A stretch of 64,000 nt of DNA, from the NCBI GenBank assembly GCA_963848965.1, contig CAWKFG010000004.1:192001-256000 (forward strand). The letters run 5' to 3'. The stretch is from an uncultured bacterium (GTDB taxonomy: Bacteria; Babelota; Babeliae; Babelales; Babelaceae). The number at the start of each line of letters is the position of its first letter. The first letter of the stretch is position 1. Below the pieces are notes generated by a model, which saw only the letters and a program-made list of their open reading frames with translations, made no database searches and was not told the origin of the DNA. Of the stretch, positions 10,698-50,869 are shown one piece after another. The position numbers and the translations under genes were made by a program.

Positions 10698-11195
10698 TTA
10701 TTTTGCCAAATACTTCAAGAGCCTTTCGTATAATTCTTGAGGAAGAGCTTTTTCAACTTCTTCTTGGTTAAGTTTTCCTTGCTGTATTAAATCTGCTACT
10801 TTCTTTAAACCACTAGTGGCTAAAGTTGGCCCTTCTGGCTTTAAAAGTTCTGCTAATTCTCTATGACCTGCAACAAGAGCAATGTCTGAAGCCGTTTGTC
10901 CTTGAGTATTCCTTACAGCTTTATCAGCACCCACTTTAAGTAATTGCTGAACAATCTCTTTATTTCCCTTATCAGCTGCTGCCATAAGCATAGTCCAACC
11001 TATATAAGGTTGATGCCAGTCATGCCCACCTTCAAGCTTTTTATCCACATTAAAAGGCTCAAACGTAGAAAATGCTTTATATTTGAGAACTTCATCGAAC
11101 ATAGACTTAAAGTTCTCTGAATCGTTCTTTATAATAGAAGAGATAATATCCAAAAAGTCACATTGTATGTATGGTATATAAAGTGAAAATACCAT
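10698..11195 (-). CDS. Ankyrin-repeat protein with C-terminal BC/Cul-box-like module
   Basis: GWTMLMAAADKGNKEIVQQLLKVGAD and GQTASDIA ankyrin repeats; probable true start at ATG 11227 (RBS AAGGAG) is one base out of frame in a T-run. Confidence 0.8.
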   Translation of the reverse strand: MVFSLYIPYIQCDFLDIISSIIKNDSENFKSMFDEVLKYKAFSTFEPFNVDKKLEGGHDWHQPYIGWTMLMAAADKGNKEIVQQLLKVGADKAVRNTQGQTASDIALVAGHRELAELLKPEGPTLATSGLKKVADLIQQGKLNQEEVEKALPQELYERLLKYLAK

Positions 11196-11357
11196 TATAA
11201 AAACAAGTTTTTTAGATTCAAAAACATAGCACTCCTTAAATATATTTTTATTTGAAAATAATTTCCATTATTATATATTATTACAGTTCCTTCCTTCTGA
11301 TTTCAAGCATTTTATATATAATAATTACGTGCATAATAAAATTGTAGTGGACTTGTA

Positions 11358-11410
11358 GAAGCTCAAACCCCATGGACTACCTCCACCTCTAGAGGCCAGG
11401 AGAATTCTTA
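11358..11410. mobile_element. Possible degenerate IS200/IS605-type end hairpin remnant
   Basis: GC-rich imperfect hairpin CTCCACCTCTAGAGGCCAGGAG in an AT-rich intergenic region; no transposase nearby. Confidence 0.25.
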
Positions 11411-11431
11411 CTACTTGTTGTTAAAGACTAA

Positions 11432-11458
11432 TAAAGGGCAGCTGAGTGCTGCCCTTTA
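11432..11458. terminator. Intrinsic terminator
   Basis: TAAAGGGCAGC/GCTGCCCTTTA hairpin downstream of 11479..12093. Confidence 0.7.
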
Positions 11459-11478
11459 AGTTTTCATAACTACTATTA

Positions 11479-12093
11479 TTATCTATCTGTTTTAGGCTCA
11501 GGAGCACAAACACAGCGAGAATCTTCTAACTCTTTTACCTCTTCCATAGTTTGAGGAACAAGATTGTCTTGTGTCTTCTTCACCCAACTGTCATAAAAAG
11601 ATTGTAGTTGCTTATAGAGCATTCCTATTCTTTCTAATTCTTGTGTATTTTGAGTTCGTAGGTCCACAGATGGCAATATAATCTTAGTAAAACACTCATC
11701 AACTTTGAATAATTGTAGAGTATCCAATATACCCCTTTGAAAAGCATTCCAACATTTAAATAGTGTTTGCCCATCAGCTAAATCATCTACAAAAGTATTA
11801 TAAAGTATACCTTCTGCATAAAATCGTAGACTCAGCTCTTTCTCCCATAGATCATGCCAAGCTCGTGAATCTTTAACCAATAGAGAAAGCTTAGCTAGTA
11901 CATCACAATAGTTAGTGCCAAAGCGTTGTCCTTTTTTGTAATATTCTTCTGCACTAAGAGGACAATCCTCTTTATAATTTTCTGCAACATACATGCGCAT
12001 CTTTTGCTTTTCTTTTTCCATACCATATGAGAAAGCAGGCACTAGTATAAGACTAAGAGCACATAATTTTTTTGCTAAATACATATTTTTCAT
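11479..12093 (-). CDS. Secreted hypothetical protein
   Basis: Signal peptide ending SYG|ME; no recognised domain. Confidence 0.7.
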   Translation of the reverse strand: MKNMYLAKKLCALSLILVPAFSYGMEKEKQKMRMYVAENYKEDCPLSAEEYYKKGQRFGTNYCDVLAKLSLLVKDSRAWHDLWEKELSLRFYAEGILYNTFVDDLADGQTLFKCWNAFQRGILDTLQLFKVDECFTKIILPSVDLRTQNTQELERIGMLYKQLQSFYDSWVKKTQDNLVPQTMEEVKELEDSRCVCAPEPKTDR

Positions 12094-12311
12094 ATTTTAC
12101 CTTTCAATCATTATGTTTTTTGTTAACATAACTTTTATCATACAGAAAATAATAGATTTATCAAAACCTCTCTATAGAAAATCATAGTACATTAAGCAAT
12201 TGTGCCTTAGTTAGCACGTTCATGAGAGCTGTTACATAATTTCTAGCTAAAGGTACAGTAATAGCAGAAAACAAGTATGGTTACTCTATTTTTTCTTTTA
12301 AGGAATCATCA

Positions 12312-12749
12312 ATGAACAAATTACAAAAGATTCTTATTATAGCTTTCTTCTTTTCAGTTAACACTCACGCAGTTTTACTTACCAACGGAGCTCACATCCC
12401 TTATGCAAAAGTAAAGCATGTCTATGATATTCTAAAAACATTAGAAAAAGAGAAGTGCTATTGTCTCTTAGCAGATTTATATAGAGCTTCAAAGAGCAAG
12501 CAGCTCAATCCGGATACTTTTGTACTCAATGATGTGCTAAACAAGAAAGATAGCAACAGAATGCAAACTGCAATAGAGCTTGGCCTCTGTGACAAAACAG
12601 GAGCTCTTGATACTGATACTGCTCATATTATTAACTCTTCTATTAGTACAATGTTCAAGGCACCACGCTGGGTTATATATGTGACAGTAAAATCACCTAT
12701 AAGTTGGAAAAACTATTTTTCTTTAAGTTATTGGAAAGAAAAAGCATAA
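12312..12749 (+). CDS. Secreted hypothetical protein
   Basis: RBS AAGGA; signal peptide ending THA. Confidence 0.7.
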   Translation: MNKLQKILIIAFFFSVNTHAVLLTNGAHIPYAKVKHVYDILKTLEKEKCYCLLADLYRASKSKQLNPDTFVLNDVLNKKDSNRMQTAIELGLCDKTGALDTDTAHIINSSISTMFKAPRWVIYVTVKSPISWKNYFSLSYWKEKA

Positions 12750-12874
12750 AAAAAGGATGGGAGATTAAGAATTCAAGGATGCCAAACTACGTCGATTCTT
12801 GTTATTCAATAGTATTTGCTGTATAATTAATTTAAAAATAAATAGAATTAACATTACTTTAAAAGGATTATCGT

Positions 12875-13285: not shown

Positions 13286-13522
13286 GTAAGTTCATTACGA
13301 AAAAGAACTGAATATTTCTATTTCTTTGATCAACCAGTGAAAAAGTATCAAAAAAGAATTATCACCTTAATTCTCCTGTGCTATACTCAAAAGTAGCTTC
13401 AATAATGAAAAAATCATCAGATAAACTAACCTTTTACTACTTAATTATTGCGAATAAAGCTATTAATTTTGTATAGTAAGTAGAGTAAAATAATCAAATA
13501 ATTTATCTATAAGGAGAATAAA

Positions 13523-13998: not shown

Positions 13999-15180
13999 TT
14001 ATACGTTGGTTAATTCTTCTTTTAGATCCTGCGGAAGTACTTTCTCTGCTTTTGTACTAAAAGTCTGATTATTTTTGCGTATATAGGCTAGAGTAATTTC
14101 CTTAAGTGTTGCCACTTGTATCTTCTTTTTATCTTTAAGTCTGGTCAGCCATAAATACTTAGGCTCTGGACCACCTCTGGTATCAACGGGTTCTCCTTTA
14201 CCTAATACCTCGAGCCATTTTCCTCCTTGGCTAATAGCCTTAAGAGCAACTAAGGGAAGATTTGTCGATATGCTCAAGAGCTTAGCCTGATCACCATCAT
14301 CAATTGAATCATCATTTACCATGAGATTAAGAATTGAACGTATATAGGGAGTATTTTCAATACAAAGTTTGCTTAGTTGAGGTGCCATAACCGCTTTTTC
14401 TGGCACTTTTACAAGTGGGTTATTATCTAGATCTACATATTGTAATGTAGGATATTCCGAAGGCATACTGTCAGAAATATCAGTAAGCCGATTATTACTA
14501 AGCGTAAGTGAGGTAAGTCTTGTATTATACTTTAAAGCATCAGCAGAAAGTCCTTTGAGATAGTTATCACTCACGTCTAATATCTCTAATAGAGGACAAT
14601 AATAAAAAATAGTCGCAGGAAGCTCTTGAAGGTAATTATGATTCAATCGAAGAGATTTAAGTTTTTTACACAATACAAAAAGATTTCCAGAAAGCTTTGT
14701 AAGCATATTACTTGAAATCCATAAGTATTCTAATATGCTCTTGTCTGAAAAAGTATCTTCAGCAAGTAAATTTATCTTATTAGAACCAAGATCAAGGCCA
14801 GATAATCGTGAGAAACATTCCAAATCTTTCTTTTTTAAAGATGTAAGAGCATTTTCTGAGAGCCTTACGGAATCAATAGTGCTTACATTAGAATGAGAAG
14901 CTGATATAAATTCTTTTAAATGCTCAAGCGAGGCTATATTTAAACCCTGAAGATAAAGACTTTTCTTATCATAACTGAAAAGTTGACCATTACTGAGTCT
15001 ATGTGCAAATTCCACCTTCGTTCTTAACTTCAAAAGATCAAGGACCCCAACAGTTGCTTTTTCTTTTTTAGAATGTACAATCTGCTGGCCATGCCGAGCC
15101 GATTCCTTCTTTTCTTGCTCCATACCCTGCATATACATAAAAAGACTTATACTTGCTAAAGTTAAAAATAGTTTTTTCAT
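13999..15180 (-). CDS. Secreted leucine-rich-repeat protein with C-terminal BC/Cul-box-like module
   Basis: Probable start ATG 15180 (MKKLFLTLASISLFMYMQG|ME); about eight LxxLxLxxNxL repeats; tail TLKEITLAYI...LPQDLKEEL. Confidence 0.88.
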   Translation of the reverse strand: MKKLFLTLASISLFMYMQGMEQEKKESARHGQQIVHSKKEKATVGVLDLLKLRTKVEFAHRLSNGQLFSYDKKSLYLQGLNIASLEHLKEFISASHSNVSTIDSVRLSENALTSLKKKDLECFSRLSGLDLGSNKINLLAEDTFSDKSILEYLWISSNMLTKLSGNLFVLCKKLKSLRLNHNYLQELPATIFYYCPLLEILDVSDNYLKGLSADALKYNTRLTSLTLSNNRLTDISDSMPSEYPTLQYVDLDNNPLVKVPEKAVMAPQLSKLCIENTPYIRSILNLMVNDDSIDDGDQAKLLSISTNLPLVALKAISQGGKWLEVLGKGEPVDTRGGPEPKYLWLTRLKDKKKIQVATLKEITLAYIRKNNQTFSTKAEKVLPQDLKEELTNV

Positions 15181-15196
15181 AGTGAGCCCATTCAAT

Positions 15197-15225
15197 AAAA
15201 AAGCGGTACTAGAAAGTACCGCTTT
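15197..15225 (-). terminator. Intrinsic terminator
   Basis: AAAGCGGTACT/AGTACCGCTTT hairpin with U tract on the minus strand after 15233..15976. Confidence 0.7.
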
Positions 15226-15232
15226 AAATGTG

Positions 15233-15976
15233 TTAGAGACAAAACGCAAATGCGTATGACGGTTGCTTAAATCTCTTATATTCTGCTTCTTTTTCAAGAG
15301 CATTGTGCTGCACTAAAAATTCTTTTGCAAAATCATTTTTCATGTTGCGTGCCTCATTATAAGCAAAATAAAGGTAGAGATCTCGCGGTGTACATTCAGG
15401 CCGATCTTCTGAAGCAATACCAGGTGATGAACTTGCTACCTCTTCTAACTCAAGTGACAATGCGGTATGTTTAAAAAGCTCAACGATTTTTAAATGCTTT
15501 TTCAACTGAATACGCGTATCATCTCTATCCTGTACCAACTCTAATTCTTCAACTTTAGAAGAAATGAGGGTTCGGATAAGTTCCATAACAGCTCTTTTTT
15601 CAGAAAGTTTTAAATTATTATTTTTAAAAAGAACAAGAAAAGCCAATTCAACAAGATCTTTTACAGGATGACTGTAAATTATGCTGTGAGTTAGATCAAG
15701 GTTAAGATAAGTCACTAGTCGCTTATTAACTTCTTGTTGCAGCTCTTGTGGCAAGAGTGAAAGGAAAGTCGCTTTATACATAGCATCTTGTGGTAGTTGT
15801 TTTAAGCGTTTAAGCGCGTTATTATATACTTCTTCAGAATTTACCGGATTACTTCGCTTTACCGGTGGAAGCAGGGACCTCTTAGGTTGCTCCTCATGAT
15901 TCATTGCACGTATAGTTGAGATGCTCAATAATAGCACGCTTACGAGTGCCGTTACTTTATATGATGTCATATACAA
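15233..15976 (-). CDS. Secreted hypothetical protein with F-box-like segment
   Basis: Signal peptide IRA|MN; FLSLLPQELQQEV. Confidence 0.7.
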   Translation of the reverse strand: MYMTSYKVTALVSVLLLSISTIRAMNHEEQPKRSLLPPVKRSNPVNSEEVYNNALKRLKQLPQDAMYKATFLSLLPQELQQEVNKRLVTYLNLDLTHSIIYSHPVKDLVELAFLVLFKNNNLKLSEKRAVMELIRTLISSKVEELELVQDRDDTRIQLKKHLKIVELFKHTALSLELEEVASSSPGIASEDRPECTPRDLYLYFAYNEARNMKNDFAKEFLVQHNALEKEAEYKRFKQPSYAFAFCL

Positions 15977-16226: not shown

Positions 16227-17021
16227 TCAGTAATTACGGTAAGGCTGTGCCTCATTCCATGCTTTGCTTAACGTATCTCTAAATAGTTGATCAAGTTCAT
16301 TTACATCTGGTTGATTTTTAAAATGTAACTCTTTTACATAGTTATTAAAATACTCAATCTGCCTTTCAGCATAGTCATTAATAATAGAAATCCGAGGAGC
16401 TTTATCTAATTCCTCTCCATTAATTTTTCTTTCAAGCAACTGCAGAATAGCCTGCTTGAGTTCTCCTCTTTCAAGCAAAGTATTCATCATAAGTTGAAAA
16501 TCTAGAGGAGCCATTTCATGAAAATTTTCAATCCATGCGCAAGCTAACAAAGGACGAAGAACATAAAAATATTTTTTTACCCATACGATATCTCCTTGTA
16601 AATATTCTTTGTAGTTATTAAGAGCCATGCTCAAATAATGGTACAAGCATGATTGAGGATTAAAATAGTTACGAGCTAGTCGTCTCGCTTGTTCAGCAAA
16701 GTCAGTATACTCTACATATACAATAGGGCTATTAAGCCACTCCATCATCGATGGATTAGACTTGCTAAATAGCCTTAAGGCTTTTCTTATCTCCCATCCA
16801 GCTAAATCAATATCGTTTGATAAAATTTTTTCAAAATTATCCTTCTTATCCCCTATTGAAAGATACCACTCAAAATGATGCACATAAATAAATCGGACAT
16901 CCCAATCGCTATTAGTAGATGCAAATCCCCAGGCTCTACTACCTGACTCTACAGCATATAAGATTTTTATTGATCTTTGTTCTTCTAACGCTTTCAATTC
17001 TTTTATTATTGCTTCTTTCAT
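16227..17021 (-). CDS. Predicted nucleotidyltransferase (YcgL/RlaP-like, Pol-beta fold)
   Basis: ESGSRAWGFAS..SDWDVRFIY, SNPSMMEWL, KKYFYVLRPLLA motifs. Confidence 0.88.
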   Translation of the reverse strand: MKEAIIKELKALEEQRSIKILYAVESGSRAWGFASTNSDWDVRFIYVHHFEWYLSIGDKKDNFEKILSNDIDLAGWEIRKALRLFSKSNPSMMEWLNSPIVYVEYTDFAEQARRLARNYFNPQSCLYHYLSMALNNYKEYLQGDIVWVKKYFYVLRPLLACAWIENFHEMAPLDFQLMMNTLLERGELKQAILQLLERKINGEELDKAPRISIINDYAERQIEYFNNYVKELHFKNQPDVNELDQLFRDTLSKAWNEAQPYRNY

Positions 17022-17057: not shown

Positions 17058-17589
17058 TCAGACTATTTTCTCTACAGTTTGATTTTTAACAACAGCAGCA
17101 ATAGCATATAAAGGATATGAGTAGATCCTATCTCTAGCTGAGTATACATAGTTATTTCTCGAAAAGTGTATTCCGTAAGGGATTTTAGGATGCTCTTTTA
17201 GAAAGAGATGCATACTTTTTAGAGCACCTCCAGTACCGCTTTTAACTTCTATAGGAATAACATGCTCATTATGTTGTATAAGATAATCAATCTCTGCTTG
17301 ACTTCCACGTTCAGCACGCTGCCAATAATATAGCTCTGCTTTCATATGAGGATCTGCGTACACTAAGAGCTCTTGACCAACAAACGCTTCAATAAATTCG
17401 CCTTTGTTAACAAATTGATCAAAAGGATTTACTAACCATTGGCCTAACCGAAGTCCCAATTGTGCCTGAGTTAAAGCAACGTCAAGGCAAAATACCTTAA
17501 ATACTTCAGGATCAACTTGAGCTCCTAAAGGATCTACGATAGGAAGCTTGTTTCCATTCAAGAAGATAATGATCAATAAAACGGCGCAT
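17058..17589 (-). pseudogene. AAA+/DUF4143 ATPase with large internal deletion
   Basis: ATG 17589 gives MRRFIDHYLLEWKQASYRRS, then joins out of frame to the C-terminal third (PLGAQ...LYYWQR...AEIDYL...PIEVKSG); Walker A and B absent. Confidence 0.85.
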
Positions 17590-18627: not shown

Positions 18628-18678
18628 CATGGAATGCATTACAGACTTTTTTATAATATTTATGGATCGCATTCCATG
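18628..18678. promoter_or_regulatory. Two ATGGA-N6-T(A/C)CA(G/T) boxes, 33-bp period
   Basis: ATGGAATGCATTACAG at 18629 and ATGGATCGCATTCCAT at 18662; together they also form a perfect 10-bp inverted repeat. Confidence 0.5.
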
Positions 18679-18690
18679 AATAGAAGTTTT

Positions 18691-19923
18691 ATGTTTGAAA
18701 AAATACGTGAACTTAGCCAATATTTTATAAAACTAAAATATGAGCACTATCAAAGGTATTTTATAAGAAGTACCCAACTCAAGCACAGATTTACAATTAT
18801 TTTAGGTGAACGTGGAATTGGAAAAACCACCACATTAATCCAATATCTCATGAAAACTGCCAATCATAATCCTTTGAGTGATGAAATTCTCTATGTTCAA
18901 GCCGACCATTTTTTAATTGGCAACACTTCTTTATATGAAATAGCTGAAACTTTCTGGAAGTTAGGTGGTAAACAAATTGCATTTGATGAGATTCATAAAT
19001 ACCCCCATTGGTCTTTAGAGCTAAAAAGTATTTACGACACATTTACCGATTTAAAAATAGTTGCTTCTGGTAGCTCTGCTTTAGAAATTACCAAAGGGAG
19101 CCATGATTTAGCAAGAAGAGCTGTAGTATACCATATGTTTGGATTATCGTTGAGAGAATTCATTGAATTAAAGTATACTATACAACTACCGACCTTAGAA
19201 CTTACCACTATTATTAGCGATCATACTAAGTTAGCCTTCGCTCTTATTGAAGAACTGGCACATAACAACTTAAAGATTTTAAAGCTTTTCAAGGAATACA
19301 TAGAATATGGTTATTATCCTTATTTCCAACAGTTTGAATCGATAGCCGAATTTAAGATTACCGTTGAACAAAATATCCACACAACGTTAGAATCTGATTT
19401 AGTAGCAATATACCCATATTTAACTGGAAATAGTATAAAAAAAATAAAACAATTAGTATCTTACCTTGCAGAATCAGTACCATTTACACCTAATTGGCAA
19501 ACTATAAAAAAAATTACAGAGATTGGGGATGATAGAACCATAAAAACATATTTTAAGTACCTAGAGGATGCATATATAATTTATGCTCTAGGGAGCTCAA
19601 CAAAAAAAATAAAAAAGCTAGAAGATCCTGAGAAAATTTTTCTTGCAAACACAAACCAACTATTTGCATTCGCATTTTTACAACCAGAAATAGGCAACTT
19701 ACGAGAAACCTTTTTCCTTAGTAACTTACGCCCTATCCATGATATCCAAGCAGCAAAAGATGTCGATTTTTTAGTTGATAGAAAATTCTTATTCGAGATT
19801 GGAGGAAAAAATAAAGATACAAAGCAGATCAGAGATAAAGATAGCGCTTACCTTGTTTTAAATAACATTGAGCATGGAACAGATAGACGTATCCCTCTTT
19901 GGTTATTTGGCTTTTTATATTAA
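18691..19923 (+). CDS. AAA+ ATPase (AAA_14/DUF4143-type) with C-terminal PD-(D/E)xK-like domain
   Basis: GERGIGKTT Walker A, FDEIH Walker B, SGSS, RETFF, DFLV...FEIGGK; start chosen at ATG 18691 (ORF open from 18634). Confidence 0.88.
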   Translation: MFEKIRELSQYFIKLKYEHYQRYFIRSTQLKHRFTIILGERGIGKTTTLIQYLMKTANHNPLSDEILYVQADHFLIGNTSLYEIAETFWKLGGKQIAFDEIHKYPHWSLELKSIYDTFTDLKIVASGSSALEITKGSHDLARRAVVYHMFGLSLREFIELKYTIQLPTLELTTIISDHTKLAFALIEELAHNNLKILKLFKEYIEYGYYPYFQQFESIAEFKITVEQNIHTTLESDLVAIYPYLTGNSIKKIKQLVSYLAESVPFTPNWQTIKKITEIGDDRTIKTYFKYLEDAYIIYALGSSTKKIKKLEDPEKIFLANTNQLFAFAFLQPEIGNLRETFFLSNLRPIHDIQAAKDVDFLVDRKFLFEIGGKNKDTKQIRDKDSAYLVLNNIEHGTDRRIPLWLFGFLY

Positions 19924-20528: not shown

Positions 20529-21842
20529 TGAGACGTTTAATTGATTCTTATCTTATAGAATGGAAAAATAGCTCAATCCGTAAATCTCTTATTATGGAGG
20601 GGAGCAAGACAAGTAGGAAAAACCTTTACTGTGAGAGAATTCGGCAAAACTTTTGAAAATTTTGTTGAGGTCAATCTTGAAAGTTCAGAAAAAGTAAGAA
20701 ATATTTTTGAGAAGGACTTACATCCTGATCGTATTTTAAGGGACTTAAGTTTACTAGTACAGCAAGATATTATACCTGGCAAAACACTTCTATTCCTTGA
20801 TGAAATACAAGCATCTCCTAGAGCATTTCTTTCTTTAAGATATTTTTATGAAGAGTTACCGAATCTTCATGTAATTGCTGCTGGGTCATTATTAGACTTT
20901 ACGATTCAACAAATTGGTATACCCGTTGGGAGAGTCAGTTCTCTGTATATATATCCAATGTCTTTCTATGAATTTTTACTGGCTATGAATGCAGATTTAG
21001 CAGCTGAAGCAATTTTAATTCATAACCCCAAAGATAAAATAGGAGAACCAATACACACTAAATTATTAGAATATTTAGCTGAATACCTAGCCGTAGGAGG
21101 AATGCCTGCAGCAATTAAATGTTGGAAAGATCAAAAAAATCCAAGAGAATGTTTTCAAATTCATCAATCTCTTATTGACGCTTATAAACAAGATTTTGAT
21201 AAATATGCAAAAGACTTTCAAATTAAATATCTTAAACTCTTATTTGAAAGAGCACTCTTAAAAATAGGAAAAAAATTTAAATATAGCTCACTTGGAGACT
21301 ATCGAAAAAGAGAATTAGAGCCTTGCCTAGATCTATTAGTTACAGCAGGCATAATGCATAAAATTTATAGAACAGATGGCAATGAAATTCCACTTGGAGT
21401 AGAATTCGGTTTAGATGATTTTAAAGTAATTTTTGTCGATATTGCACTCACTCAAGCTTTATTAAATATTAACTTAGCAGACTGGCTTTTGAATCCATTA
21501 CAAGATTTTATAAATAAAGGAGAAATTATTGAAGCATTTATCGGTCAAGAATTAATAGCTTATTCTGATCCTTATCAAAAAGCTCAGCTCTATTATTGGC
21601 GTAAAAATGAACCTTCTAGTCAAGCTGAAGTTGACTATCTTATACAAAAAAATAATTATGTAATTCCAACAGAAGTTAAAAGTGGAGCTACAGCTTTACT
21701 TAAAAGCTTAAAAATATTTTTAGAAAATAGGCCTAAAAGTCCCTATGGCATAAGATTTTCTATTAATGACTACTCTATACATCAGAAGGTTTATTCTTAC
21801 CCATTATATGCAGTTTATGGATTTTTACGATCAAAAGTTTGA
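20528..21842 (+). pseudogene. AAA+/DUF4143 ATPase with a single +1 frameshift near 20597 (possibly a sequence error)
   Basis: MRRLIDSYLIEWK from 20528; GARQVGKT is in the next frame; LFLDEIQ, AAGS, GGMP, AEVDYL, EVKSG motifs intact. Confidence 0.8.
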
Positions 21843-22173: not shown

Positions 22174-22494
22174 ATGTATCTAGTACCCATTTTATTATCA
22201 ATTTTCTTTTCTTTATCACTCTACGGTATAGAAAGAGAAGAGGCTGATCAAGTACAGCAAGTTAAACAAAAACCGCTAATACCATCATTGAATGATCTTA
22301 TATGGAGGCTTCATATTATGCGGCAACTACTAGGAATACCTATGACACTAGAAGAAATCGTAGAGCAACTACCTCGAGTAAGGATGTCAAAACTTTACTT
22401 TAAGATCTTAGATTTTTTAGAAGATCACGAGCTACGCGTAGGAATTCCATCCACAAAGAAGGAAATAGATAAAATGGCTCCTGAAAAGGGATAA
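22174..22494 (+). CDS. Secreted hypothetical protein (may extend to 22658 across frameshifts)
   Basis: Signal peptide LYG|IE; IPSLNDLI BC-box-like segment; open coding-like frames continue to TAA 22658. Confidence 0.6.
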   Translation: MYLVPILLSIFFSLSLYGIEREEADQVQQVKQKPLIPSLNDLIWRLHIMRQLLGIPMTLEEIVEQLPRVRMSKLYFKILDFLEDHELRVGIPSTKKEIDKMAPEKG

Positions 22495-22833: not shown

Positions 22834-23406
22834 ATGATCTCTTTAAACCAATGTTTAAGCCTATTTATAGTAACGTGTAGTTTCTTCCTATTACAGGGTA
22901 TAGCTCCGTACCCTTCTCATCCGTCTCCGGATACGTCTGCCCAGATTAAAAGCCTTAGCGACAATCCCATTAGACTCAGTGGTGTAGAATGTAAAGTTAA
23001 CATCGAAGATCATAGACCAGAATCATATACTGATAGTAAGATACCTAAATTTACTAATTACTTTACTCCTAAAGTTAGTTTAAACTGTTCAGGAAGCACA
23101 TATATACGTAAGGCAATTTTATTCCCTATAGATTGGGAACATTACATCAAACAAAATAGCGACTCTTTACCAGAAGCATTCAAGGAATATGCACTAGAAG
23201 AGAGACCAGAAATTCCTTTTAATGCAGTACCTTACACATCTAAGATATATCCTGGCAAAAGTTATCTTGCTCAAACTGAGGTTAGATCACTTAAAGAACA
23301 AGCCATAGACTACATTAAAAGGTATAAAGGGCAATATTTTACCATAAAGCAGTTGGAAGCTCTTGAAACTCTGCCTCAAGAACTTAAAGAAAAAATTAAC
23401 TTGTAG
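22834..23406 (+). CDS. Secreted protein with C-terminal BC/Cul-box-like module
   Basis: Signal peptide; tail SLKEQAIDYI...LPQELKEKI. Confidence 0.78.
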   Translation: MISLNQCLSLFIVTCSFFLLQGIAPYPSHPSPDTSAQIKSLSDNPIRLSGVECKVNIEDHRPESYTDSKIPKFTNYFTPKVSLNCSGSTYIRKAILFPIDWEHYIKQNSDSLPEAFKEYALEERPEIPFNAVPYTSKIYPGKSYLAQTEVRSLKEQAIDYIKRYKGQYFTIKQLEALETLPQELKEKINL

Positions 23407-24173
23407 TGGCTCGCAAGATAAGCTTTACTAATAATTACTTTCAGCAGATTAAGATTAATCGGAATGCGTTTAAGGCAAATGCTTTTGATCTGTTTGATAA
23501 AGCAATGGATTTCTTAGCCTTTTCCTTACCGGTAGCTGCTCACATTGAATCTGGAAACCCTGATCGTATTGAAACTCCTGCAATTCCTTATAGTGTTCTT
23601 CGTGAGGCTATTACTAATGCCTTAGTACATCGTGATTATAGTCATACAGGAGGATCAATAGCAATTGCCATATACGATGACCGAGTCAATATTACTAATG
23701 CTGGCTTCTTGCCTTCTGGCATTCGGATAAGCCAACTTGCTAAAGACCATCCTTCTATGCCACGCAATCCAGTAATTGCCCATGTATTTTATTTATGCCG
23801 AAAAATTGAAAAATGGGGCCGTGGTACCATCGATATGGTTGAAGATTGTAAAAGAGCGGGTAATCCGTCACCAAATTTTGAAGAGATTGGTAATCACTTC
23901 TCGGTAACATTACCATTTAAAAAACCTATCCGCAGCCTTGTACACACTAATTTAGAGCACATTGATTTAAGCAGACTAACTCCACGTCAGCAAGCAATTA
24001 TAAATGCTTTGAAAAATGGTCCTCTTAAAACGCAAGAAATCATAAAGGTCTTACACTTAAATTTAACCGATAGATCTATGCGACTAGAGCTTGCTCAACT
24101 TAAGAAAATGGGCCTAATTAAATCTAAAGGCAAAACCAAATCCTCAATATGGCTCTTGAATAACCATGAATAA
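23406..24173 (+). pseudogene. 5'-truncated HATPase_c_4 ('RecG C-terminal') + wHTH protein
   Basis: LREAITNALVHRDY, RNPVIA, IEKWGRG motifs and C-terminal HTH; usual N-terminal AlbA/Schlafen domain absent, no RBS. Confidence 0.75.
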
Positions 24174-25233: not shown

Positions 25234-26346
25234 TCATTTCTTTTCTTCTAGCAAGATTTCTTGTTTTTCAAGTTCAGCTTCAATCTCTTCAATGGTTGGC
25301 AGGCTGCTTTTGAATTCTTCGGGCAACTCATTTAAAATCTCTGTCATATATTGAGATACGCCAATCGGTGAGCGTATATTTCTTAAAGCATACTCAGCGA
25401 CAACATTATTTTTAGTCTTACATAGTAGTAAACCAATTGTAGGATTATCGTCTTTACCTTTTACCTTATCGTCAATTACTGCAAGATAGAAGTTAAGTTG
25501 ACCAATATCGCCAGGATCAAAATCTCTCGCTTTGAGCTCTATGGCTATATAACATCGCAATTGTATATGATAAAACATAAGGTCTACATAATAATCTTTA
25601 TCCTCCACTTCAAGGCGGTATTGCCTTCCTACAAGAGCAAAACCCTTACCAAGCTCAAGGAGAAACTTTTGGATATTATCTATAAGTCCTTGCTCTACAT
25701 CTTTTTCAATGTATTGCTTTTCCAAGGTCAAAAAATTAAAAATGTAAGGATCCTTGAAAGATTGTTGTGCCATATCAGATTGCGGCGTTGGTAATGTTTT
25801 TTGAAAATTATTAAGAGCTTTCCCTTCTCTATGATAAAGATTTGATTCTATCCAAATTTCAAGCATGCTCCTGCTCCAACCATGTTCTATGGCTTTTTGA
25901 GCATACCAAAATCGTTCATCAGTATCTTTTAACTTAGTTAATAAAATTACGTTGTGCCCCCAAGGTATATTAAAGATTGGGGTATCTTCAAATTGTCTCA
26001 CGGCTTGTGAGACTTTTTCATAAGCCAGGTAAAGGGCCCTCATTTTAAATAGATTCGCTCTAGAGAATCCGCCCATACCAGGAAAAGAGCTTTGAAGATC
26101 TTTAGCAAAATTCTCAATAACACTAGTCCCCCATTTTCCCTGTTTTTGCTTCTCTGCAAGAACTTCCCCAATATACCAGTAGAGCTTAATCAACTCTTTA
26201 CTTGCAGAAAGAACAGCTTTAACTTGTGCTTCTTGGATACGCTTTTTTACATCAGCCAATACTTGAGCATATTCTCTTAATTCTATACTTTTTGCATCAT
26301 TAATTGCAGCTTTGCTTCTGGCCTTCTTCGTCATAGTTTGTGCCAT
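25234..26346 (-). CDS. YhcG/DUF1016 family PD-(D/E)xK nuclease-domain protein
   Basis: LYWYIG, IPWGHN, FKDPYIFNFL, FLLELGKGF, VDLMFYH, IELK, GQLNFY motifs. Confidence 0.93.
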   Translation of the reverse strand: MAQTMTKKARSKAAINDAKSIELREYAQVLADVKKRIQEAQVKAVLSASKELIKLYWYIGEVLAEKQKQGKWGTSVIENFAKDLQSSFPGMGGFSRANLFKMRALYLAYEKVSQAVRQFEDTPIFNIPWGHNVILLTKLKDTDERFWYAQKAIEHGWSRSMLEIWIESNLYHREGKALNNFQKTLPTPQSDMAQQSFKDPYIFNFLTLEKQYIEKDVEQGLIDNIQKFLLELGKGFALVGRQYRLEVEDKDYYVDLMFYHIQLRCYIAIELKARDFDPGDIGQLNFYLAVIDDKVKGKDDNPTIGLLLCKTKNNVVAEYALRNIRSPIGVSQYMTEILNELPEEFKSSLPTIEEIEAELEKQEILLEEKK

Positions 26347-27106: not shown

Positions 27107-27763
27107 TCAGCTATCAAGCAATTTCTCGCTTTTCTGTAAGATTACACTATAAAAAGTTCTATGTGAACCGTAGCTTAACTTTTTCGCCCACGTTGATGGA
27201 TACTCTCTCAAATCATTGTACGTTAACGATTTAACATTCATAACGCTAAAACCAAGATTTTCAAGTTTTGGGATCATGGAATTTTGTAGGCATGCTTCAT
27301 TTAAGATAGGTAAATTAAGACGCTCAATCTCTTTTTTATCATGCTCTGGGTCATAACCAAAAATAACATGAACCAAAGCTTCAGTCTTACAAATTTTCTT
27401 AATGTTATTCCAAGTAAGCTCATGCGCTAAAACTATACCTTGAAGCAAAGTACCCCAAGGGAAGTTAATATAAACCTTATCGGCACTACCATTCAGCTCT
27501 CTAGGTAAGGTTTCAACAGAAGATAAGACGTATAGAACGTTAGCTAAACCACCCTTTGAGAGTTTTTTTAAAGCCTTAGCTGAAATCTCAACTAAGTTTT
27601 CGTGACAGGGATCAATACCAATAACCAGTGACTGCGGGTTTTCTTTAGCCATATGGTAAGCAAAAGAACCGTCACCGGTACCAATATCGACGATAACCAA
27701 AGGTCAATGTCATTGGTCGCTTCGATCTATTTCTACTAACTTTTTACCCTGAATAACTTTCAT
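27107..27763 (-). pseudogene. 16S rRNA (adenine-1408-N1)-methyltransferase, NpmA/KamB family; two in-frame TGA near the 5' end
   Basis: DIGTGDG, GIDP, NFPWGTLL, STWAKKL motifs; ATG 27763 gives MKVIQGKKLVEIDRSDQ*H*PLVIVDIG; remainder open from TTG 27700. Confidence 0.85.
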
Positions 27764-46012: not shown

Positions 46013-46038
46013 AAAAGAGGACCTTAAGGTCCTCTTTT
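46013..46038. terminator. Bidirectional intrinsic terminator
   Basis: AAAAGAGGACC/GGTCCTCTTTT hairpin. Confidence 0.78.
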
Positions 46039-47357
46039 TACATAATAGTTGGCAAGGTAAATTTAAAGGGAGCTTTTTTTGGATACAGTATAGAAACTAT
46101 CTCACGAATACTTAATCTATCAACAATAGAATAGAGATCCCATATTGATATAACACCATTATTAGCAGTGCTCAACATATACCGTCCATCTGGGCTAAAG
46201 CATAACGAAGAAATACCATCGTAATGAACATTATAATCTTTAAGTTCAATCAAATCATTCTTTATCTTCCTTGCTATAAACACAGTATTGTGTAAAGAAC
46301 TTGCCGCTATATAGTTATTTTGTGGATGAAGTGCAATACAGGAAACAGGTGGCCAAATTATACCGTAACCGCAATAAGATACAGCTCCATACTCATTATC
46401 TTTGGTAGCATAGACCTTTATCGCCCCGTTTTTATAACCTACTATAGCTTCTCTACCTCCCGGGGTAAAGTTCACAGCAGTGATAGCTCTTTGACTGCTC
46501 TTTGCAAGCAAATGAGTAGCTACAAAATTCCCTCTCCAATTTATAAGTACTCCTGCATACTGATGGTAAAGTTCGTTACGGCCACTATCATATCCTACAA
46601 GCAGTTGTTTACTTTGAGTGTGAAATACTGCGCAAGTGAGGTAAATATTCCTATGTTGCGGAAAAAATCCTAGCAAATTACTTGTATTTGTACATTGCCA
46701 GGTAGTGGGTGACCATGTGCGCATAGTAAAATCTTTAGAAAAAGAAAAAAATCGAGTAATTCCTGATGAGTTATATTCAAATGCCACAGCTATAACAGAT
46801 TGTGTATGTCCTCGTAAAACTGCAAGACATTTATTTTCGCTTATATCCCACACAGCAATAGTTGCGTCCTTAGAACCTGTAAGAGCATATTTACCATCTC
46901 TGCTAATAGTCAAACAGGTAATTGGTCCTTTGTGTGCTTGCAATGTTTGCGCTTGCATAGTACTTTTGTTAAGGACATATACATTACCATCCTCCGCTCC
47001 TAAAACAATAAAATGTCCATTGGGCGTAAATGACGAACAAGTAAAGGTAGTTACATAAGTAAGGCCCGGTAGAGTAACTTGCGCTAAAGTTGGCATATGT
47101 GATGAGCCTTTAAAAAGAGCGTGATAATAGTTCTTAAAAAAATAGTTACGAAGGTTGTTTTGCACACCTGCATCCAAAGCCTCTAAACTTTTTAACAACA
47201 ATTCTTGTTTCTTAAACGATGCTTGTTTCAATAATGTATCAATGGTAGAGCATGACGACTGTACTAAAGACTTTACATGCGACTGTGGGTCCATTGCTTT
47301 AAGACCAAAGAGAGGCATGAACACTAATAGGGTTATAAAAATATTTTTAAACATCAT
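46038..47357 (-). CDS. Secreted WD40-repeat protein
   Basis: Signal peptide LKA|MD; AHKGPIT...TGSKDATIAVWD, GHTQSV, FSPDG...SIWD repeats. Confidence 0.9.
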   Translation of the reverse strand: MMFKNIFITLLVFMPLFGLKAMDPQSHVKSLVQSSCSTIDTLLKQASFKKQELLLKSLEALDAGVQNNLRNYFFKNYYHALFKGSSHMPTLAQVTLPGLTYVTTFTCSSFTPNGHFIVLGAEDGNVYVLNKSTMQAQTLQAHKGPITCLTISRDGKYALTGSKDATIAVWDISENKCLAVLRGHTQSVIAVAFEYNSSGITRFFSFSKDFTMRTWSPTTWQCTNTSNLLGFFPQHRNIYLTCAVFHTQSKQLLVGYDSGRNELYHQYAGVLINWRGNFVATHLLAKSSQRAITAVNFTPGGREAIVGYKNGAIKVYATKDNEYGAVSYCGYGIIWPPVSCIALHPQNNYIAASSLHNTVFIARKIKNDLIELKDYNVHYDGISSLCFSPDGRYMLSTANNGVISIWDLYSIVDRLSIREIVSILYPKKAPFKFTLPTIM

Positions 47358-47484: not shown

Positions 47485-48657
47485 TTATAGTGGCACTGTA
47501 GAAAGCGATTTCCAGCTTATTACACGACCCTGCGACCATTTCTGATCTTCATCACCTGCATATATAACCATACTATTTTCAGGATCTGCTTGGGCCAACT
47601 CATTCCAAAACCTAAGGCCATCAAAAAAGGATGGTGAAATTGTCTTTGCTGCTTTAATCTCTATAGGTATAAGCGTTTGTCCTTTATCAATAATACAATC
47701 TATCTCATGCCCTGTATGATCTCTCCAAAAATATAAGCCAGGATCTTTTCCTTGGTTATAGTATCTTTTGGCTAAGTCTGAAATAATAAGAGATTCAAAA
47801 AGGTTTCCCTTAAATGGATGCATAGGAAGTATTTCTGGAGTTATTTTAAGAAGAGAGCATACGAGTCCTGTATCATAAAAAAATAATTTAGGGCTTTTAG
47901 TAACCCGTTTACTAAAACTTCTATAGTGCGGCCTTAACAGAAATACAATATAGCTTGCCTCTAATAAAGAGAGCCATTGCCGAGCAGTATTATCACTAAT
48001 ACCACAATCATTAGCAAGAGATGTTAGATTTAGTAGCTGCCCAATACGTCCAGCACATAATTGGATAAAGGTTTGAAACAAATCAAGATTCTCTACTTGC
48101 CTTAGTTGCCGAACATCTCTTTCAAGGTATGTATGAATATACCCTCTATACCAACGATCAGCAGGTACTTCAGTTGTATAAAGAGGAGGATATGAGCCTT
48201 TATACATAAACTCTTCTATAGCTTGAGGAAGGAGCTGTGCTGCAGAAAGTTCTTCTATAGAAAGTGGTAAAAGTGTATGAATAGAAATTCTTCCAGCTAA
48301 TGACTGTGTAATAGCTTGATTCATAAGAAAATTCTGTGAACCAGTTAAGATAAACTGTCCTGGTCTCTTTTTCTCATCAACATAGGCTTGAATATACGAA
48401 AGGAGCTCTGGCACATGCTGAAATTCATCAATGATAAGGCCATGATCATTAAGATACTCTGCCAAAAAACCTCGTGGATCTACTGAAGCAAAGGTACGTA
48501 AATCTATGTTTTCTAAATTCACATACCGATAAGTACCAAAAATTTCACGTGCTAAAGTGGTCTTGCCTGCTTGTCTTGGGCCTAGTATAGCAACAACTGG
48601 GAAAAATTTTGCCATTTTAAGGATATCAGCAGTCATAGCACGACGTATAATCATCAA
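47485..48657 (-). CDS. AAA+/DUF4143 ATPase
   Basis: GPRQAGKTT, IIDEFQ, LTGSQ, TYLERDVR, YFWRD, EIDC, PIEIK. Confidence 0.92.
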   Translation of the reverse strand: MMIIRRAMTADILKMAKFFPVVAILGPRQAGKTTLAREIFGTYRYVNLENIDLRTFASVDPRGFLAEYLNDHGLIIDEFQHVPELLSYIQAYVDEKKRPGQFILTGSQNFLMNQAITQSLAGRISIHTLLPLSIEELSAAQLLPQAIEEFMYKGSYPPLYTTEVPADRWYRGYIHTYLERDVRQLRQVENLDLFQTFIQLCAGRIGQLLNLTSLANDCGISDNTARQWLSLLEASYIVFLLRPHYRSFSKRVTKSPKLFFYDTGLVCSLLKITPEILPMHPFKGNLFESLIISDLAKRYYNQGKDPGLYFWRDHTGHEIDCIIDKGQTLIPIEIKAAKTISPSFFDGLRFWNELAQADPENSMVIYAGDEDQKWSQGRVISWKSLSTVPL

Positions 48658-50261
48658 TTTCTCCTATCTTTGAAAATTCGAATTTCAAATTCGGATTTTC
48701 ATTTTTCTTAGAATAGCATGATTTAAACAATAAAATCAATTGCTTAAGGCTTAATAAAGTAATCTGTTTAGCTTTATGACCTCTATATTTCCAATAAAAA
48801 TAGTTTGTAAAGAGCAAAGAAGGATCATATCTTCTTTTTAACGTAAAGAATTGGTCTATCGTAGGATAACCAGCTCTCAGCTGCTCTTTTGTAAAATACA
48901 GCTGATACGGCAAAAAGAAGGTTCCTCCGAGCTTTAAAGCAAGATTTATGAGTTCTTGTGTTACAACTTTCATGTTTTCAAGAGCAGGAACTGAAACTCT
49001 TTGATTAAGATAGAGCACAATAGCAAACATATCTTGAGGAGCATAATTTAGTAGAATAAAAGATTGAGGTACAATACGGATTGATACGTTAAGCACGAGT
49101 ACTTTTCTCTTTTTAAGAACCTGTTTCATGCCATCAATAAACTCTATAAACCGAGTATGCGGCACAAAATACTCCTGTAAAATATCCGTTTCTTGAGAAA
49201 GAATATTTTCAAGGTATTCAACTGAATCATGCATAATTTGATTACGCGACATAAAAGTTTCGCTTTTTAAAGGCAGAGAAATATAAGGATCAATATACTT
49301 TTCTGCAAACCACTTAAATATGCGTGCATACATACGCCTTTTTAGACAGATTAACTAAAAATCTTCGTGTATTTACAAAGCTTACACGCCTTAAAGGTTC
49401 AAAAGGTCCTGTATAATCTTTTACTGGCTTATAACCATAGACAAGAGCCTCTTGAAGAAATGATAGCGGTGAAGTAGATAAATGAGCATACAGAAGACCA
49501 TACGTTTTATCTCGTACAGCTTTCTCAAAGAATTCTGGAAGCTCTTTATAATTCATAATCTTAAGTATACTTTGATACATAACGTTGTCGGTCACTTTTA
49601 AGGTTACTTCAAGCACTACTCCAAAGAGGCCATAACCACCAATAACCGTATTAAAAAGCTCATCTTCTTGCTCAATTTTCTTAATAGAACCATCTGCAAG
49701 CATGATAGTAAACGATTGAACGGTTGAAACTAACGTTTCATAAGGATCCATTCCGTGAGCATTAACAGAAAGGGATCCTCCTACGGTAAAAATGTCTGTC
49801 GACTGCATAGCCTTAACCGCTAATTTTTTAGGATGAAGAAAGAGTTGTATATCATGCCAGGTAACACCACTTTGTACGGTAAGAAGCTTATTTTTCTCAT
49901 CAAGAGATAGAATTTTATTAAAAGAAGTCATATCAAGTACAAGAGCATTCTTAAAAAACGCCTGCCCACCCATACTATGCCGCTTTCCTGCTATCGAGAT
50001 AGAGAGCTTTTTATCTCGAGCAAGTAGTAATGCATTACGTATTTCATCAACCGTTGATACAGTAGCAATATCGTAAACAGGTGTTTCATTCAGACAACTT
50101 GCATCGTTAATGGTTTTATGAGAAGTGCTCTTATCACTATTTAACCTAATAGGGCAGTAATCTGGAGAAAGCGGTGTAGCAGCATAATAAACAATTACTG
50201 TACCTACATATATAACACCCAATGTTATACAGAGCAATAATAACTTTTTAAATGTAGTCAT
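48626..50261 (-). pseudogene. FAD-binding oxidoreductase (PCMH/VAO family), frameshifted near 49335 (possibly a sequence error)
   Basis: GKRHSMGGQ, VGGSLSVNAHG, GGYGLFGV in 49314..50300; ILQEYFVP, GGTFFLPY, KRRYDP in 48626..49333. Confidence 0.8.
48672..48700. promoter_or_regulatory. 29-bp near-perfect palindrome upstream of the AAA/DUF4143 gene
   Basis: GAAAATTCGAATTT-C-AAATTCGGATTTTC, one mismatch. Confidence 0.55.
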
Positions 50262-50337
50262 ATACCTTTTGCTTAAAAGCCTGATAATACCTCGAAGCAA
50301 TTATACATAATCTTACATATAAAAAAGAAGTCTTAGA

Positions 50338-50703
50338 TTATAAATGAGTTTTTTGATTAATCATTAAAAGCAAGATAGTAAGAAGTTCCTTAGGCAAAAC
50401 TTTAAGGTAGCTATCTTCTTGAATAGGTCCAAAATAAGGCACTGCACCTATGCTTAATAGAGATGTAGTAGGATTTACATTTGTGCTTTCTACTGCCATT
50501 TTAAGAAATTCATCTTTAAGATCTTGTGGAAGTATCCGGACTTGCTCTTTAAGCTCAGACCAGTTTTTCTTTATATAGCATATTACAAGCTCTTTTAAAG
50601 AAGTTATACGAGGCTTATGCAGATACGCAGGACCCGCCATCATAATAGGAACAAAAAATAAGCTTATTGCAAGCATTTTAAATATTTTATTGAACATTAA
50701 CAT
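50338..50703 (-). CDS. Small secreted protein with BC/Cul-box-like and F-box-like segments
   Basis: Signal peptide from ATG 50703/50697; SLKELVICYI...LPQDLKDEF and YLKVLPKELL. Confidence 0.7.
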   Translation of the reverse strand: MLMFNKIFKMLAISLFFVPIMMAGPAYLHKPRITSLKELVICYIKKNWSELKEQVRILPQDLKDEFLKMAVESTNVNPTTSLLSIGAVPYFGPIQEDSYLKVLPKELLTILLLMINQKTHL

Positions 50704-50710
50704 CCTTACG

Positions 50711-50869
50711 TTATTTAGAAGGTAATTCATCTTTAAGCTCTTGAGGAAGTACTTGGTATGCTTGTTCTTTAAACTGAGACCAATTCTGCCTGACATAGCA
50801 CAGTCCGTTAGCAACAACGATTGAAGAAGAAAGAAGAGCCATTATATATGGTATAACTTTATATGACAT
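50711..50869 (-). CDS. 52-aa mini-protein: signal peptide plus partial BC/Cul-box-like module
   Basis: Not in ORF track; MSYKVIPYIMALLSSSIVVANGLCYVRQNWSQFKEQAYQVLPQELKDELPSK*, homologous to the module in 50338..50703. Confidence 0.7.
   Translation of the reverse strand: MSYKVIPYIMALLSSSIVVANGLCYVRQNWSQFKEQAYQVLPQELKDELPSK

Follow-up and report, generated by a model that had tools for sequence, protein, structure and literature searches.

What is the short protein segment that recurs, on bodies of quite different build, along one stretch of a Dependentiae genome, and onto what might it dock? The stretch analysed here, hereafter the window, comprises 64,000 nucleotides of a 1.73-Mb genome from an uncultured bacterium. 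The first-pass annotation had taken the segment for a BC box joined to a Cul2 box, by which exported proteins would recruit host Elongin B/C and Cullin-2. The recurring ~40-residue module, predicted to be helical, is real: six copies exist in the genome, five of them inside the window. At a probability of about one half, we favour a candidate role as a portable docking box of SOCS/VHL type, built of three helices and made for a host adaptor of the Elongin C type.

Six copies of a module on four bodies

A module HMM seeded with the four clear copies and run against the 13,999 six-frame ORFs of the genome, a scan that the first-pass annotation had suggested, returned six copies at E ≤ 1e-9 (range 1e-9 to 4e-22), the next-best match standing at 0.004. 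An HMM of 41 family members recovers the identical six copies in the same genome (E 8.6e-17 to 2.1e-7), and a family-specific regular expression matches five real ORFs as compared to a mean of 0.05 across 20 shuffles. Translations and HMM together confirm the module in the four complete carriers and the partial one that had been named in the window; the sixth copy lies beyond it. The carriers, and two further proteins that had been counted with them, are the following:

10698..11195, minus strand: ankyrin-repeat (ANK) protein of 165 aa (Pfam Ank_2, 1.3e-9), module C-terminal at 10701-10850
13999..15303, minus strand: leucine-rich-repeat (LRR) protein (Pfam LRR_8, 6.4e-27), module C-terminal at 14002-14133
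22834..23406, plus strand: 190-aa orphan-body protein with leader, module C-terminal at 23263-23403 (HMM E 3.3e-20)
50338..50817, minus strand: short protein with leader, module at 50479-50625 (HMM E 4.1e-22)
50711..50869, minus strand: 52-codon ORF with a partial module, found by HMM, in another frame and directly upstream of the 50338-50817 ORF
C1:384163-384720, outside the window: full-length paralogue of the 22834 protein, found by HMM
46038..47357, minus strand: WD40 protein with leader (WD40 at 3.5e-36), not a module member
22174..22494, plus strand: 106-aa protein with leader, no Pfam family, not a module member

The last two had been proposed as weaker members and drop out, as the 41-member HMM finds no match in either at E ≤ 10; when the WD40 protein is compared by BLASTP with a module-bearing Babeliales WD40 protein, the propeller alone aligns.

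How different are the bodies? In an all-against-all BLASTP of the five complete carriers, similarity is limited to the 36-49-residue module, with one exception: the 22834 protein is a full-length paralogue of the C1 copy (52% identity over 151 residues). The distinct bodies therefore number four rather than five or six: ANK, LRR, an orphan family of two members, and the short protein.

The ANK protein bears the most divergent copy (E 1e-17 as a seed, 2.1e-7 with the 41-member HMM), and three metagenomic ANK-plus-module proteins align with its last repeat and module. Its AF2 model places three helices at residues 125-138, 144-150 and 153-163, with pLDDT of about 71-75. In the LRR protein (module E 4.3e-20), the chain stops 10 residues past the Pro of the module; translation likely starts at an internal Met, and the resulting 393-aa product (about 13999-15180) would open with a hydrophobic leader that ends in ...MQG/MEQ; the protein-library entry (P0028) has this 393-aa form. 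The body of the 22834 protein matches no Pfam family at E ≤ 1. The 50338 protein is laid out as leader, module, linker and, near its end, a second LP-helix motif (SYLKVLPKELL...); its 119-aa library form (P0007) is the best-scoring library match, and the AF2 model of its module, from a 23-row alignment, has a mean pLDDT of 76.9. According to a three-frame translation, the 50711 ORF keeps only the distal half to two-thirds of the module and lacks the S/T-L start, with matches over profile positions 10-38 (E 1.9e-10) or, with the 41-member HMM, 15-41 (E 1.5e-8). It is probably the remnant of a tandem duplicate.

All carriers had been described as exported. Read by eye, export leaders appear in the LRR, 22834, 50338 and C1 proteins, whereas none is obvious in the ANK protein. 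Two earlier reports describe how Dependentiae export ANK proteins and others of their kind in large number by way of Sec leaders (PMC6561590, PMC4776705).

Conservation across the phylum

The module family is rare, with 44 matches among 1.84 billion proteins, and all source names seen are Dependentiae/Babeliales. Counted over 41 distinct, that is non-identical, modules, position 1 is S in 30 and T in 8, position 2 is Leu without exception, and position 10 is I (32), V (8) or A (1). Position 6 varies more (C 21, A 7, T 5, V 4, S 2, L 1, G 1). Downstream, the LP dipeptide has its L in 37 and its P in 40 modules; relative to it, D/E occupies +3 in 38, L +4 in 33 and I/L/V +8 in 34, so that LPx(D/E)L is near-invariant. 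From these counts, the constrained positions are the i, i+4, i+8 stripe of a BC-box helix plus a second helix of the form phi-P-x-x-phi-x-x-x-phi. The complete copies of our genome have A, V, V, T and G at position 6. Replacement of the central Cys in every copy, as had been noted, therefore holds for them and softens with the wider family, where Cys itself is present in 21/41 and C, A or S in 30/41 members.

The module is C-terminal in 17 of the 41 proteins, whose chains stop 6-17 residues past the Pro; in another 19 it lies directly behind the leader. Elsewhere its bodies are ANK, WD40, LRR, ubiquitin-like or orphan. Might it be a mere structural cap or linker, partnerless and spread by duplication of gene ends? 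The helices of the ANK model do extend the repeat stack, Foldseek matches run over DARPin caps, and the truncated tandem copy at 50711-50869 speaks of recent local duplication. A cap is nonetheless hard to reconcile with a module that also occurs on LRR, WD40, ubiquitin-like and orphan bodies, N-terminally in some and C-terminally in others, or with a surface-exposed stripe that families throughout the phylum conserve despite their differing bodies, and we consider this explanation highly improbable.

Likeness to known docking boxes

Does the module match a known box? Pfam models of SOCS_box, VHL, Elongin_A, F-box and PRANC matched nothing in the six proteins (E ≤ 1), in eight relatives or nine isolated modules (E ≤ 10), or in 31 library matches (E ≤ 0.01). 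Searched against the whole genome, SOCS_box (PF07525) gave no match at E ≤ 10 with 17 candidates scored, and the Elongin A domain (PF06881) matched no module in genomes G000, G184, G116, G194 and G110 at the same threshold. Profile searches of PDB sequences brought up neither SOCS nor VHL proteins; RAD7, DRC5 and an LRR protein (E 0.4-2.7) were the only rows of relevance.

Published consensus patterns discriminate poorly. A relaxed BC-plus-Cul2 pattern matches 39 real ORFs against a shuffled mean of 22.9 (maximum 33), and because shuffled ORFs match at more than half the real rate, such a match is almost worthless as evidence for a BC/Cul2 box. Under the permissive BC-box pattern, the five complete copies fit at positions 1, 2 and 10 (5/5 each) and at position 6 in one case, the Ala of the 22834 protein, which is the sole consensus-allowed residue there in the genome. 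The Cul2-box pattern phi-Pxx-phi-xxx-phi, likewise permissive and weak alone, occurs 8-25 residues downstream in 6/6 copies, with F/V/L/I/L/L at +8. The Cul5-box LPxP is found in none of the six: each has the form x-L-P-Q-(E/D)-L, the residue x being I, V, T, S, A or V, and the absence of the Cul5/SOCS motif from the window copies, as first described, is confirmed.

Weak leads that agree with one another point to a SOCS/VHL-type box. Among language-model neighbours, the top named Atlas clusters are SOCS_box, at 0.78 for a Cys-bearing relative and 0.77-0.78 for the LRR copy, and a Vif cluster ranks fourth for the Cys-bearing relative (0.76); all lie below 0.9 and serve as leads only. In a Foldseek search of the PDB with the AF2 module model, five of six matches are the CRL2 receptors APPBP2 and KLHDC3, topped by the N-terminal VHL box of APPBP2 and by KLHDC3-EloB/C, with scores within the range of chance helical matches. 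SOCS_box passes its Pfam cut-off in one of 261 Dependentiae genomes, in a different protein: this relative (G184) encodes a leader-box-ANK protein whose box scores 24.5 bits (cut-off 23.5), with Val at position 6, as in two copies here, plus LPLP. The module HMM gives this box 3.2 bits only, whereas hhalign aligns the module profile with it and with a G255 relative over 38 columns, end to end (P 2.2e-4, probability 45%). The profile comparison with VHL, SOCS and F-box families that had been suggested is thus negative at the level of Pfam and gives a weak lead, over the full module, in the alignment to a Pfam-positive Dependentiae SOCS box. Taken together with the C-terminal ends, these leads partly support a BC-box plus cullin-box (VHL/SOCS-type) module as the best fit among the readings tested; consensus matching and the Cul2 part of the original claim do not contribute.

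Compared with the SOCS box, the module has the same layout and length, but carries I/L at position 7, where Arg is common in SOCS boxes, and lacks LPxP. ASB and WSB proteins parallel the ANK-plus-box and WD40-plus-box architectures. With the VHL boxes of CRL2 receptors (APPBP2, KLHDC3, ZYG11, LRR-1, FEM1, PRAME), it has in common a length of ~40 residues and, as predicted, a layout of three helices. As defined earlier, a VHL box joins a BC box, (S,T,P)LxxxC/S/Axxx-phi, to a Cul2 box, phi-Pxx-phi-xxx-phi, and VHL/SOCS boxes are known at the N- or C-terminus, on ANK, LRR, Kelch or TPR bodies (PMC4878042). The second-helix pattern and the terminal placement are shared, and the first-helix pattern is shared apart from position 6, where four of the five complete copies have V, V, T or G. 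On the other side, sequence and structure scores are not significant, the bearers are exported bacterial proteins, and the family has a signature of its own, with K3, Y9, N13 and D/E at LP+3.

A possible, if doubtful, alternative is a helical docking or assembly tag particular to this lineage and directed at some other partner—a host hub, a bacterial export or sorting factor, or the protein itself—whose BC/Cul likeness reflects convergence on a helix-turn-helix. The lack of a significant profile link to any known box, the near-equal matching of published patterns to shuffled sequence, the structural scores, all within chance range, and the tiny, Dependentiae/Babeliales-restricted family agree with it. 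So does the LP helix alone, found in ~40 further ORFs of the genome, including a 12-member leader-'SYLxLLPQELxxEL'-ANK family, which suggests a genome-wide tag; on its own, this helix may have a separate role. Against this, language-model features, Foldseek and hhalign all favour SOCS/VHL boxes over unrelated helical motifs, and conservation picks out precisely the stripe that faces Elongin C. An export signal, in turn, would be unexpected at either protein end and behind a normal Sec leader, and at least eight library members seem, by eye, to have no leader.

Could the module instead be a truncated or divergent F-box, or a PRANC-like box, docking on host Skp1-Cul1? ANK/F-box proteins do so in Legionella, Agrobacterium and poxviruses. 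In its second helix, LPxEL..., the module looks like F-box helix 1, the LPxE(L/I) helix being common to both, and true F-box-like and Skp1_POZ-type domains occur above cut-off in 27/261 and 45/261 Dependentiae genomes, respectively. With 19 Pfam-positive Dependentiae F-boxes, hhalign aligns the LP helix (P 0.0028), but over 18 columns at 11% probability as compared to 38 columns at 45% for the SOCS-type box. Neither the F-box (PF00646) nor the F-box-like (PF12937) model hits a module, the four weak matches of the latter in G000 (E 0.10-0.15) lying elsewhere, and no F-box/Skp1 structure is among the fold-search matches. Moreover, the most conserved part of the module is the helix preceding LP, which F-boxes lack, and the 6-17 residues after the Pro in 17/41 proteins—9-13 in four of the five complete copies of the genome—leave no room for F-box helices 2 and 3. 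Docking through an F-box is hence very unlikely. Bacterial F-box effectors and Dependentiae F-box-like domains do share with the module the grafting of a cullin-adaptor box onto ANK, LRR or WD40 bodies, and F-box domains are reported for TM6/Dependentiae in part of an earlier study (PMC4776705).

A putative handle for a host cullin ligase

How would an Elongin-C-type docking box work? Helix 1 is predicted to be amphipathic, of the form (S/T)-L-K-x-x-(C/A/T/V)-(I/L)-x-Y-I-x-x-N, and would be followed by a short helical linker and a second helix starting L-P-x-(D/E)-L-K-x-x-(I/L). Dependentiae appear to fuse this box to interchangeable bodies (ANK, LRR, WD40, ubiquitin-like, orphan), placing it immediately after a Sec leader or at the very C-terminus. 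Once delivered into the host cytosol, the Leu/position-6/Ile stripe of helix 1 would fit into the groove that host Elongin C, or a close POZ adaptor of the Skp1 family, offers, the LP helix would pack alongside towards a cullin, and the body domain could present a host protein for ubiquitylation. Viral BC-box hijackers such as HIV-1 Vif, adenovirus E4orf6 and the poxvirus ANK/BC proteins offer a precedent, with a parasite-encoded BC-box-like helix and variable target-binding parts; Vif has Ala at position 6, so non-Cys residues are tolerated. Here, in contrast, the carriers are bacterial and Sec-exported, and come as many paralogous bodies per genome.

Which cullin would be engaged? Specificity for Cullin-2 is unsupported: it had been drawn only from the missing LPxP, and a relative has the same box with LPLP. 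Cul2 is reported to be animal-specific (PMC2785787), as is Cul5, whereas the likely hosts of the module bearers are protists, in which the partner is probably not Cul2.

Cullin-RING ligase hijacking by bacteria is known from F-box, U-box and BTB mimics, and BC-box mimicry from viruses. In the literature retrieved, we found no mention of a BC/SOCS-type box in Dependentiae and no work on the function of any bacterial BC-box effector; the one related item lists Pfam SOCS_box domains for Endozoicomonas genomes (PMC9743535). If true, a modular bacterial box of this type would add a new route of host manipulation and bear on whether Elongin-C ligases operate in protists. For a phylum with almost no experimental data, the 41-member HMM would then provide a handle for finding host-directed effectors. 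A bolder and unlikely proposition is that Dependentiae own a family of Elongin-C-type boxes, missed by current SOCS, VHL and F-box models, as a plug-in handle that makes substrate receptors of many different binding domains in protists without Cul2 or Cul5. It would mean either that cullin ligases built on Elongin C are of ancient origin and functional in protists, or that those relatives which export small Skp1_POZ-only proteins as well bring both adaptor halves and hence a self-contained ligase-hijacking kit.

A module shared by otherwise unrelated proteins

What do the module-bearing proteins of this genome (G000) have in common? The first-pass annotation had placed one box of ~35-40 residues, consisting of a BC-box-like first helix (positions 1-13) and a second helix with the motif LPx(D/E)L (the LP helix), on proteins of different type, and the translations indeed show it there. 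A profile of the four clear copies, scanned against the 13,999 six-frame ORFs of G000, recovered six copies at E <= 1e-9, with the next best match at 0.004; five of the six lie within the window.

Copies of the module in G000
10698-11195: ankyrin-repeat (ANK) protein with module at 10701-10850
13999-15303: LRR protein with module at 14002-14133
22834-23406: orphan protein with module at 23263-23403
50338-50817: short protein with module at 50479-50625
50711-50869: 52-codon remnant, first helix of the module missing
C1:384163-384720 (contig C1, outside the window): full-length paralogue of the 22834 protein (52% over 151 residues)

Apart from the 22834 protein and its C1 paralogue, the bodies share no similarity beyond the module itself. 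Judged by eye, the LRR, 22834, 50338 and C1 proteins show a hydrophobic leader, and the ANK protein does not. The LRR leader (15120-15180, minus strand) ends in ...MQG/MEQ, and the leaders of many relatives end in ...A/G-M-(E/D/Q). A 41-member family profile recovers the same six copies, together with a possible, Cys-bearing seventh outside the window (C4:289258-290937; full-sequence E 0.0089, domain E 1.9). The WD40 protein at 46038 and the protein at 22174, both previously listed as weaker members, have no match to this profile at E <= 10 and are therefore non-members; reading the N-terminus of the WD40 protein as a decayed module was likewise rejected.

The family has a narrow range. At E <= 0.01, a six-copy profile matched two of 41 close relatives (G000 included in the count), and a nine-sequence profile matched 16 of 261 Dependentiae genomes, some of these matches being spurious hits to a single helix (HflX-like, GNAT-like and PpiD-like proteins, dismissed by eye). 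Clear members are found in G014, G109, G110 (five), G116 (three), G184 (five, four of them in tandem), G194 (three), G040 and G183. Searched exhaustively with HMMER, 1.84 billion representative proteins yielded only 44 at E <= 1e-3, five of which (P0029, P0030, P0034, P0038, P0051) were excluded from the counts as repeat-protein artefacts with multi-stretch matches (BTB x6, MucBP, LRR, low complexity). When 5.8 billion proteins were searched by word index, 15 matched at E <= 0.1, and wherever the source supplied a name it was Babeliales or Dependentiae ('Candidatus Babeliales bacterium', 'Candidatus Dependentiae bacterium'); IMG/VR scans with P0041 and P0035 yielded nothing useful. The module is C-terminal in 17/41 cases and sits just behind the leader in 19/41, accompanied by ANK repeats (before or after it), WD40 repeats (after it), LRRs, a ubiquitin-like domain (P0035) or one of several orphan folds. 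Some library proteins apparently have no leader (e.g. P0033, P0035, P0039-41, P0045, P0049, P0050). P0035, 114 aa long, has only two parts, a ubiquitin-like domain (Pfam ubiquitin, 5.2e-12) and, directly after it, a Cys-bearing module.

Across an alignment of 41 non-identical modules, Leu at position 2 is invariant, position 10 is aliphatic in all, and position 6 holds Cys in 21 and C, A or S in 30. Tyr at position 9 (30/41) and Asn at position 13 (31/41) are specific to the family, and the first helix is followed by the LP helix consensus L-P-x-(D/E)-L-x-x-x-(I/L/V). The lack of the central Cys, initially raised as a caveat, thus holds for the G000 copies but not for the family at large.

Comparison with SOCS, VHL and F-boxes

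Published BC-box and Cul2-box patterns are nearly uninformative as evidence: the relaxed combination matched 39 real ORFs vs 22.9 in shuffled sequence (maximum 33), and the strict one 12 vs 6.45. A family-specific pattern matched 5 real ORFs vs a mean of 0.05 in shuffles. The Pfam models SOCS_box, VHL, Elongin_A, F-box and PRANC were unmatched by whole proteins, relatives, isolated modules and library proteins alike. The SOCS_box model gave no match at E <= 10 in the whole of G000, Elongin_A none at the modules of five genomes, and the F-box-like model four weak matches in G000, none at a module. Sequence searches of the PDB with three profiles (A1, A3, A4) returned no SOCS or VHL protein and mostly designed LRR proteins, aligned via 'LPQG..'; the only relevant entries (E 0.4-2.7) were RAD7 (5zb2), DRC5 and an LRR protein, whose N-termini resemble the first helix of the module. 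Foldseek with the ANK protein model found DARPins and ANK proteins only, and is uninformative on the module.

Other comparisons gave leads in favour. One G184 protein clears the Pfam SOCS_box cut-off (24.5 bits) and has the architecture of the module proteins, with leader, box and ANK repeats; its box and the module align in register, and in this box position 6 is Val and the second helix has LPLP. The module HMM scores this box at only 3.2 bits, and hhalign aligns the module with it and a G255 relative over 38 columns (P 2.2e-4, probability 45%). The main rival, an F-box that would act through Skp1 and Cul1, was checked with a control set of 19 Pfam-positive F-boxes from the phylum; here hhalign aligned the LP helix only (18 columns, P 0.0028, probability 11%). 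Four of the five complete G000 copies stop only 9-13 residues past the Pro, a stretch long enough to hold the final helix of a SOCS/VHL box and too short for helices 2 and 3 of an F-box. Protein-language-model neighbours of a Cys-bearing relative and of the window's LRR copy were SOCS_box clusters (0.77-0.78), with HIV Vif also among those of the former (0.76), all below the tool's bar of 0.9 and therefore leads only.

The best reading, with a chance of roughly one in two, is that the module is a portable SOCS/VHL-type box. An exported binding domain carrying the module would then engage Elongin C of the host, or a closely related POZ adaptor, which in turn would link it to a cullin. The module family is real as a sequence family; parasite-encoded mimicry of cullin-ligase receptors is its putative function. 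The partner had been named as Cullin-2, an assignment we find unsupported, since it was based on the absence of LPxP, yet the same box of a relative has LPLP, and since Cul2 and Cul5 Elongin complexes were concluded to be animal-specific (Marin 2009, PMC2785787, in which amoebae are not mentioned). The same paper lists yeast Elongin C complexes that involve Cul3. As regards export, the literature describes one species in which 44% of coding sequences bear signal peptides, and mentions outer-membrane vesicles (PMC6561590). Our literature search found no paper linking Dependentiae with a SOCS box, and 'SOCS' does not occur in the two Dependentiae genomics papers searched (PMC6561590 and PMC4776705); a search for BC-box or Elongin effectors of bacteria turned up papers on viruses and hosts only. 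Pfam SOCS_box domains are listed for Endozoicomonas in PMC9743535.

The LP helix alone and other adaptor-type domains

The pattern LP[QK][ED]L, representing the LP helix alone, has 45 matches in G000 ORFs, so the helix may form a separate unit, the stand-alone motif being a possible independent version of the module's second helix. Some large proteins carry such a motif at their C-terminus ('YFxxLPKDLFxxLLLFL'). About twelve ANK paralogues on contig C1 (loci L002 and L003; C1:578605-609803) carry 'SYLxLLPQELxxEL' behind a leader, in the order leader, 'S/T-Y-L-x-L-L-P-Q-E/D-L-x-x-E-L-x-x-F' motif, ~130-residue helical linker and ANK repeats. Within the window, the 50338 protein combines both kinds of motif, the module and a stand-alone-type LP helix.

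LP-helix motifs in the window
15233-15976, minus strand: ORF adjoining the LRR gene, carrying 'FLSLLPQELQQEV'
50338-50480, minus strand: second LP-helix motif 'SYLKVLPKELLTILLL', stand-alone type, at the end of the short module protein

Other adaptor-type domains occur in the phylum. Skp1_POZ exceeds its cut-off in 45/261 Dependentiae genomes, mostly at the N-terminus of proteins of 300-900 residues, and in none of the G000 proteins. It is the sole Pfam domain in small leader-bearing proteins of 134-207 aa from eight genomes (loci L107-L114; G050, G202, G217, G060, G116, G180, G115, G051), an architecture that is that of Elongin C. Co-folding the exported G116 protein of this type, as a stand-in for Elongin C, with a G116 module scored 0.00, which is evidence neither for nor against binding. 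Genuine F-box-like domains are present in 27/261 genomes (G002, with 24 matches, and 26 others, L116-L139), and none exceeds the cut-off in G000.

Genomic setting

G000 comprises 1.73 Mb on five contigs, at a G+C content of about 37%; the window spans C4:192001-256000. Besides eukaryote-type repeat proteins, the window encodes housekeeping functions (prfA-like, topA, gidB, mreC, murB-like and metG pieces) and genes of mobile or defence type. The latter, together with an HATPase_c_4 gene, are interspersed with the module genes, which suggests a variable, recombination-prone region.

Genes interspersed with the module genes
16227-17021: RlaP
17058-17576: AAA_14/DUF4143 ATPase gene or fragment
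18634-19923: AAA_14/DUF4143 ATPase gene or fragment
20631-21842: AAA_14/DUF4143 ATPase gene or fragment
23406-24173: HATPase_c_4 protein
25234-26346: YhcG PD-(D/E)XK nuclease
47485-48657: AAA_14/DUF4143 ATPase gene or fragment

Methionyl-tRNA synthetase is split over three consecutive ORFs, which means that either the gene is disrupted or the assembly is faulty here.

Methionyl-tRNA synthetase ORFs
50998-51294, minus strand: N-terminal catalytic part
51317-52258, minus strand: rest of the core and anticodon domain
52391-52921, minus strand: C-terminal tRNA-binding-like piece

The window also encodes a 197-aa protein with a match to the 16S rRNA (adenine-1408-N1) methyltransferase family NpmA (27107-27700, minus strand; E 4.5e-60), whose members are known for aminoglycoside resistance.
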